Shown: positions 15,915-17,208 of the stretch, piece by piece
How positions within the stretch are numbered: the first letter of the stretch is position 1
Layout: each line of letters begins with the position of its first letter
Source: Escherichia coli
GTDB lineage: Bacteria > Pseudomonadota > Gammaproteobacteria > Enterobacterales > Enterobacteriaceae
Length of the DNA: 64,000 bases
Reading direction: 5' to 3' (one strand)
Assembly: GCF_024502345.1 (NCBI RefSeq)
Contig: NZ_JALDNN010000001.1
The notes under the pieces: model-generated
What the model was told of the DNA's origin: nothing
Database searches by the model: none
The model's input: only the letters and a program-made list of their open reading frames with translations
Made by a program: the position numbers and the translations under genes

Positions 15915-17208
15915 ATGCGCTATAATGGTTTAAATAATATGTTTTTCTCTCTTTGCCAGATTAACGATAACCACTCTTTCACAAGTTCATCACATACAAA
16001 GAAAACAAAATCATATAATTACAGCAAACATCATAAAAACACGTTAATTGACAATAAAGCCCTCTCTCTTTTCAAGATGGATGATCATGAAAAAGTGATA
16101 GGTTTGATTCAGAAAATGAAAAGAATTTATGATAGTTTACCATCAGGAAAAATCACGAAGGAAACGGACAGGAAAATACATAAACATTTTATAGATATAG
16201 CTTTATATGCAAATAATAAATGTGACGATAGAATTACGAGAAGAGTTTACCTTAGTAAAGAAAAGGAAGTATCCATTAAGGTGGTATATTATTATAAATA
16301 ATGTCGCCGTCCATAATAATACTATCGAAATTCCACAGACAGTAAATGGTGGTTACGATTTTTCACACCTTAGCCTGAAAGGTATCGTGATTAAAGATGA
16401 AGATTTATCCAATTCGAATTTTGCAGGTTGCAGACTACAAAACGCTATTTTCCAGGACTGTAATATGTATAAAACGAATTTTTATTACGCCATAATGGAA
16501 AAAATACTTTTTGATAATTGTATTCTCGATGACTCAAATTTCGCTCAGATAAAAATGGCCGACGGAACTCTAAATGCATGCTCCGCTATGCATGTTCAAT
16601 TCTACAATGCAGCAATGAATAGAGCCAATATTAAAAATACCTTTCTTGACTATTCAAATTTTTATATGGCGTACATGGCTGAGGTAAATCTTTATAAAGT
16701 AATAGCGCCATATGTTAATTTATTTAAAGCCGACCTTAGTTTCTCTAAACTCGATTTAATTAACTTTGAACATGCTGATCTGTCTCGCGTCAATCTGAAC
16801 AAAGCAATCCTCCAGAATATAAACTTAATTGATAGCAAACTCTTTTGTACGTGGCTAACAAATACATTCCTCGAAATGGTTATATGTACCGACTCTAATA
16901 TGGCTAATGTTAATTTTAATAATGCCAATTTAAGCAACTGCCATTTCAACTGTTCTATTTTAACAAAAGCCTGTATGTTTAATACTCGTCTCTATCGGGT
17001 TAATTTTGATGAGGCCAGCGTCCAGGGAATGGGCATTTCCATACTCCGTGGGGAGGAAAATATCCCCATTGATAGTGATACCCTGGTAACACTACAGAAA
17101 TTCTTTGAAGAAGATTGTACCTCTCATACTGGCATGTCACAAACTGAGGATAATATTAATGCAGTCGCTATGAAGATTACTGCAGATATTATGCAACACG
17201 CAGATTGA
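15915..17208 (+). pseudogene. yjcF: pentapeptide-repeat protein gene disrupted by a single-base frameshift (ORFs 15915-16301 and 16207-17208)
   Basis: Two overlapping ORFs in different frames over 1294 bp; frame change in the tract tattattataaataat near 16290-16300; 127 + 303 residues gives the 430 aa I recall for intact YjcF; C-terminal part rich in A(D/N)LxxxNF-type pentapeptide repeats. Confidence 0.75.

Follow-up and report, generated by a model that had tools for sequence, protein, structure and literature searches.

The question raised by this locus was why the gene yjcF is read as two overlapping open reading frames (ORFs) in a 64,000-nucleotide (nt) stretch of Escherichia coli DNA (contig NZ_JALDNN010000001.1 of RefSeq assembly GCF_024502345.1), referred to here as the window. 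An initial annotation, made from the letters alone, had proposed that one extra A in an A/T tract splits the gene, and had named genuine pseudogenisation, a homopolymer sequencing error and, as less likely, a recoding site as possible causes. An inherited frameshift pseudogene of yjcF (also named espX5), derived from a single ancestral insertion of an A, is the best explanation and is considered highly probable. The additional base is present, is shared with other genomes and lies on one local haplotype, and its coding consequence is predicted from the sequence. The allele is already known, as the same frameshifted yjcF/espX5 pseudogene is annotated by RefSeq in ATCC 8739, O121:H19 and others. 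It is an ordinary, inherited and inactivated copy of an accessory gene that is AT-rich, weakly constrained and dispensable, and its biological weight is small.

The inserted base and its coding consequence

Two ORFs in different frames were located on the plus strand, 15915-16301 (128 amino acids, aa) and 16207-17208 (333 aa), together spanning 1294 nt, as given in the initial annotation. The window has no uninterrupted yjcF frame of 430 codons: one additional nucleotide at 16291 brings codon 129 into play as a stop. Intact yjcF alleles comprise 1293 nt and encode 430 aa. The alleles of K-12, O157, B7A and CFS3313 are single ORFs, and alignment of the window with the intact alleles of CFS3313, O157 Z869, K-12 and B7A contained a single gap column, which corresponds to an additional A in the window, at position 16291. 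Comparison with yjcF from other E. coli strains thereby confirmed the single extra base. Intact alleles read GGTATATT-TTATAAAT at this site and the window reads GGTATATTATTATAAAT; the placement of the gap is unambiguous. The insertion breaks a run of four T (TATATT-TTAT becomes TATATTATTAT). Because it sits in the middle of this run, between the second and the third T, the A extends no homopolymer.

The frame switch was read correctly in the initial annotation: frame 0 ends in ...VVYYYK-stop, with the TAA at 16299-16301, and the +1 frame continues with ...NNVAVHNNTIEIPQ. In silico deletion of A16291 restored a 1293-nt ORF of 430 codons, and the repaired 430-aa protein was matched exactly on 226 public contigs. 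The parts of the gene are as follows.

15915-17208, plus strand: yjcF/espX5 pseudogene, full span of 1294 nt, between actP and yjcE; both halves align with YjcF of K-12
15915-16301, plus strand: truncated frame of 128 aa, consisting of 125 native N-terminal residues, Y-Y-K and TAA; no pentapeptide repeats
16291, plus strand: inserted A inside codon 126 (TTT, Phe, becomes T-A-TT); context GGTATATT[A]TTATAAAT
16299-16301, plus strand: premature stop TAA in the original frame
16292-17208, plus strand: out-of-frame remainder with native residues 126-430 and the whole pentapeptide-repeat domain (from Pfam, BLASTP and the frame limits)

Gene identity was assigned by BLASTP. Residues 1-125 of the first ORF correspond to residues 1-125 of K-12 YjcF (91% identity, the alignment reaching residue 126), and residues 29-333 of the second ORF correspond to residues 126-430 within an alignment of 89% identity. 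Because each ORF aligns with its own part of YjcF, they are halves of one gene and not a chance overlap. The division into 127 and 303 residues given in the initial annotation was not right; the native residues are distributed as 125 and 305. The open stretch of the +1 frame begins at 16201, with the first ATG at 16207. Pfam searches with the 333-aa ORF gave matches to PF13599 (E = 2.3e-22) and PF00805 (E = 8.7e-22), the nearest solved structure chains were pentapeptide-repeat proteins, and a weak match to the SopA-family model NF007264 (E = 9.4e-4) was also obtained. No Pfam or NCBIfam family was matched by the 128-aa ORF.

The region around 16 kb has the gene order typical of E. coli, acs-yjcH-actP-yjcF-yjcE-ghxP, with yjcF flanked by actP and yjcE, the same placement as in K-12 (b4066), O157, ATCC 8739 and others. 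Its neighbours in the window are the following.

14088-15737, plus strand: actP, 5' neighbour of yjcF
17362-19011, minus strand: yjcE, 3' neighbour of yjcF

YjcF of K-12 (b4066, NP_418490.1; 430 aa) shares with the window this position and the same pentapeptide-repeat Pfam domains. Its gene is an intact 1293-nt ORF at a distance of about 60 single-nucleotide polymorphisms (SNPs), whereas the additional A at codon 126 reduces the window allele to a 128-aa stub. The orthologous locus of O157:H7, with about 95.7% nucleotide identity, encodes EspX5, a type III secretion system effector pentapeptide repeat protein (e.g. WP_001270084.1), and its gene is intact, unlike that of the window. The O157-type allele is named EspX5, a putative type III secretion effector, by RefSeq, where the effector role is an annotation label.

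Distribution and origin of the frameshifted allele

The locus was compared with 5426 complete E. coli genomes (RefSeq). A 1.5-kb query of the locus was matched in 4117 of them; the best match had 99.8% nucleotide identity, and the best 11 matches (99.7-99.8% identity) had the full query length of 1501 nt, 1 nt longer than matches to intact alleles. The insertion itself was sought with an 80-nt query having it at the centre, at an identity of at least 99%, which at such a length means an exact match, and with at least 80% of the query covered. Because all matches reach this coverage, they span the insertion. At least 157 of the 5426 genomes were found in this way, i.e. at least 3.8% of the 4117 in which yjcF was matched. 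Among the carriers are three separate assembly records of ATCC 8739 (NC_010468.1, CP022959 and CP033020), many O121:H19 Shiga toxin-producing E. coli (STEC), enterotoxigenic E. coli and one genome of sequence type 361 (ST361). The two-ORF arrangement is thus not the common state of the orthologues. The exact 128-aa truncated product was recorded on at least 1000 contigs and in 2276 gene-position index blocks.

All 15 fetched carrier loci share an identical 26-mer around the insertion, and nine carrier loci from public assemblies had 99.2-99.7% identity to the window over 15 kb. The allele nearest to that of the window (L016) differs by 1 SNP in 1294 nt and is a carrier too; a synonymous SNP at gene nt 1072 is private to the window allele, and a variant at nt 1102 is common to it and L016 alone. 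In all seven carrier genomes with annotation examined, among them VREC0864, ATCC 8739, O121 RM8352, D2, MIN14 and CAVP880, yjcF was flagged by the Prokaryotic Genome Annotation Pipeline (PGAP) as a 'frameshifted' pseudogene. The pseudogenes of ATCC 8739 (ECOLC_RS21300) and of O121:H19 RM8352 (I3S_RS26500) have the same A, local haplotype and 128-aa product as the window; measured against the window allele, there are 3 SNPs in the O121 allele and 23 SNPs in the mosaic allele of ATCC 8739. Pseudogenisation, as suggested initially, is borne out by these annotations and by the recurrence of the insertion.

These data bear on the possibility of an assembly or sequencing error in the genome of the window, by which the real DNA would have no extra A and would read TATATTTTAT at 16285-16295. 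Single-base insertions and deletions are the commonest assembly error, the region contains about 70% A+T, and the RefSeq complete E. coli genomes, which do not include that of the window, offer no other assembly of its strain for comparison. However, no homopolymer is lengthened by an A that breaks a T4 run, the same insertion occurs at the same position in the 157 or more complete genomes, which come from many laboratories, the nearest yjcF allele, at 1 SNP, carries it as well, and an error that exactly recreated a known natural allele would be a remarkable coincidence. Because the site is not a homopolymer and the A is common to the nearest allele and to many independent assemblies, such an error is very unlikely. 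The homopolymer error proposed initially finds no homopolymer to act on: the site, TATATTATTATAAAT, contains no long run of about 7-9 nt or more. The extra A and the AT-rich context of the initial annotation were correct. Homopolymer slippage was likewise rejected, given the position of the A within the T4 run and its recurrence in many independent assemblies.

The insertion was found on one background. All 15 fetched carrier loci lie on the local haplotype of the window. Between gene nt 130 and 530, six aligned carrier alleles differ from the window by 0-2 SNPs, compared with 12-13 SNPs for K-12 and O157. Outside this segment, ATCC 8739, CAVP880, D2 and MIN14 have K-12-like flanks, hence these alleles are mosaics. 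The intact parental haplotype is extant in CFS3313, with 0 SNPs across nt 130-530. A single origin of the insertion is indicated because the carriers are near-identical at nt 130-530 while their flanks are mosaic. One insertion event on the local haplotype, with the allele then passed on vertically and spread by recombination, appears to be the simplest reading of the 16 sequences compared, a set that does not amount to a full phylogeny.

Under the proposed course of events, codon 126 of yjcF/espX5 would have gained a single A, on one occasion, in an ancestor. With the frame shifted, translation from the native start would end three codons further on at the TAA and yield the 128-aa stub without the repeat domain. 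The allele would then have been handed on among E. coli lineages by descent and recombination, and the genome of the window would have inherited it. Because nothing of the repeat domain is left in the stub, the allele is in all likelihood null, and full-length YjcF is presumably absent from the carriers.

Loss of the gene has several parallels. The yjcF query found no match in 1309 of the 5426 genomes (24%), at least three of the top matches (H54, H66 and H67) have an IS1 within the gene, and a second frameshift is present in strain D2. Because of these observations and of the O9:H10 genome described below, yjcF is regarded as dispensable, and because it is dispensable its loss is probably neutral or nearly so. 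E. coli D2 (NZ_CP010137.1) has the same additional A and a second single-base A insertion at alignment column 585, about 200 nt downstream of the first, and its repaired frame stops at codon 200; this second frameshift represents further decay of the pseudogene. In E. coli O9:H10 (NZ_CP062851.1), the actP-yjcE interval is filled by IS1A and the query is matched by its last 126 nt alone, which constitutes an independent route to the loss of yjcF.

The gene forms an AT-rich islet with a GC content of 29-34%, compared with 52-58% in the flanks. The ratio of nonsynonymous to synonymous substitution rates (dN/dS) between major yjcF alleles was 0.23-0.31, versus 0.02 for the adjacent actP. By these ratios yjcF has served as a coding gene, under weak constraint. 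It is a gene of the horizontally acquired type, AT-rich and with a pentapeptide-repeat product.

Three points weigh against an inherited null allele. The missing full-length product is deduced from sequence alone. The downstream frame is otherwise open in 15 of the 16 carriers, which would also fit its continued use. Finally, the extra A of the window is known from the assembled sequence and not from reads. The open downstream frame does not discriminate, because the carriers diverge so little that further decay is hardly expected. The carriers are also too alike for a meaningful test of relaxed selection, and the second frameshift in D2 is the sole informative point.

The allele is of some relevance to virulence screens. 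Screens based on nucleotide similarity would call it 'espX5 present' despite the 128-aa stub. The O121:H19 STEC strains are positive for the locus of enterocyte effacement (LEE). As the sampled ones carry the putative null allele, their effector repertoire would therefore be without EspX5. The ST361 genome NZ_CP103704.1 carries the frameshift, and espX5 has been listed among the effectors present in ST361 isolates (PMC12744401). This case is a small caution for presence/absence screens by nucleotide similarity. Literature searches on espX5, yjcF and EspX pseudogenes returned virulence-gene lists and unrelated matches only, and no paper on this frameshift was found among them.

Recoding and residual function as unlikely alternatives

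A programmed +1 frameshift, for example at AAA-UAA (16296-16301) in the manner of the prfB 'shifty stop', would yield a near-native full-length protein. A +1 shift anywhere in the 98-nt overlap 16201-16298 rejoins the native frame, and the downstream frame has stayed open in all but one of the 16 carriers. As in the prfB type, the in-frame stop follows a potentially shift-prone codon, here Lys AAA, and a Shine-Dalgarno (SD)-like sequence (AAGGTGG, 16278-16284) is located upstream. The locus differs from prfB in three respects: the frameshift is not conserved among yjcF orthologues, the SD spacing is 11 nt and not 3 nt, and the SD-like sequence also occurs in intact alleles. The prfB stimulator acts at a distance of about 3 nt from the shift codon, whereas AAGGTGG ends 11 nt before the AAA at 16296, and its presence in intact alleles argues against a role in frameshifting. 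The first ORF ends in AAA-TAA-T, and re-pairing of tRNA-Lys on AAU is poor.

The distribution of the allele also argues against recoding: the frameshift is derived, is confined to a minority of about 4% of yjcF-matching genomes and is absent from K-12, O157 and B7A, and strain D2 has gained a second one. The sole homopolymer run of at least 6 nt in yjcF is an A6 at 16499, outside the overlap 16201-16298. On this ground, transcriptional slippage and phase variation are excluded. The 100 nt downstream folded no better than shuffled sequence (z = -0.38). The recoding site considered initially is thus unsupported by SD spacing, homopolymer search, downstream folding and conservation, and programmed recoding is judged extremely unlikely.

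The same SD-like sequence bears on a second alternative, a split gene with residual function, in which the 128-aa stub, or a C-terminal repeat fragment translated by internal initiation, would be made and used. Gene callers predict products of 128 aa and 247 aa in all nine carrier loci returned. Candidate starts for a C-terminal fragment are the ATG at 16207 or the in-frame ATT and ATA codons (ATT 16288, ATT 16291 and ATA 16294), which lie just 3' of AAGGTGG, 3-9 nt past it. However, the ATG at 16207 is not preceded by an SD-like sequence, and initiation at ATT or ATA is very weak. A C-terminal fragment would also be without the N-terminal region, the seat of type III secretion signals, and nothing in the gene sets such a case apart from an ordinary pseudogene. 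A scan of 15600-17450 for promoters and terminators gave no more sites than shuffled sequence and was therefore uninformative. Residual function of a split gene is considered extremely improbable.

A further variant comprises low-level +1 frameshifting or internal initiation with a selected repeat-domain product, or else a positively selected loss spread by recombination across phylogroups. If true, selection on a residual repeat-domain product would explain the open 305-codon frame in 15 of the 16 carriers. This variant is very improbable, and the locus is best described as an inherited frameshift pseudogene.

Other features of the window

Two IS1 elements interrupt other genes of the window. 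The first (22879-23646, 768 bp) splits pdeC, a gene for a cyclic di-GMP phosphodiesterase; an IS1 at or near this site is rare, with only a few complete E. coli genomes having one. The second (51341-52108), in opposite orientation, shares 99.3% identity with the first and disrupts lamB, the gene for maltoporin. The LamB signal peptide forms the start of the N-terminal lamB ORF. The lamB::IS1 junction was found in none of the 5426 complete E. coli genomes, and an exact-product look-up of the truncated LamB gave no match. The absence of the junction suggests an IS1-active lineage, perhaps a Shigella-like one, outside the 5426-genome collection. The gene fragments are the following.

21934-22782 and 23620-24306, minus strand: pdeC fragments, the EAL-domain part and the N-terminal part as separate ORFs
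52028-52594 and 50477-51223, minus strand: lamB fragments, split by IS1

A full-length match (1141 bits) to the SopA-family model NF007264 was given by an intact 526-aa ORF at 47505-49085 (minus strand), a putative second type III effector-like gene in the window, which is not frameshifted.

Genuine recoding occurs elsewhere in the window. A SECIS_2 element (375-429, plus strand, 87 bits) is located directly upstream of ORF 431-2110 (plus strand), whose match to the formate dehydrogenase alpha subunit begins near profile position 146. The element marks the UGA-selenocysteine site of fdhF, the 5' end of which is probably cut off by the start of the window.

Among RNA features, the Hfq-binding small RNA sraL (20925-21065, plus strand, 151 bits) adjoins soxR, and five intergenic copies of one Rfam family were found.

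2898-2968, 3011-3081, 13615-13685, 50394-50464 and 55400-55470, minus strand: naRNA4 (CssrE) family (Rfam name)
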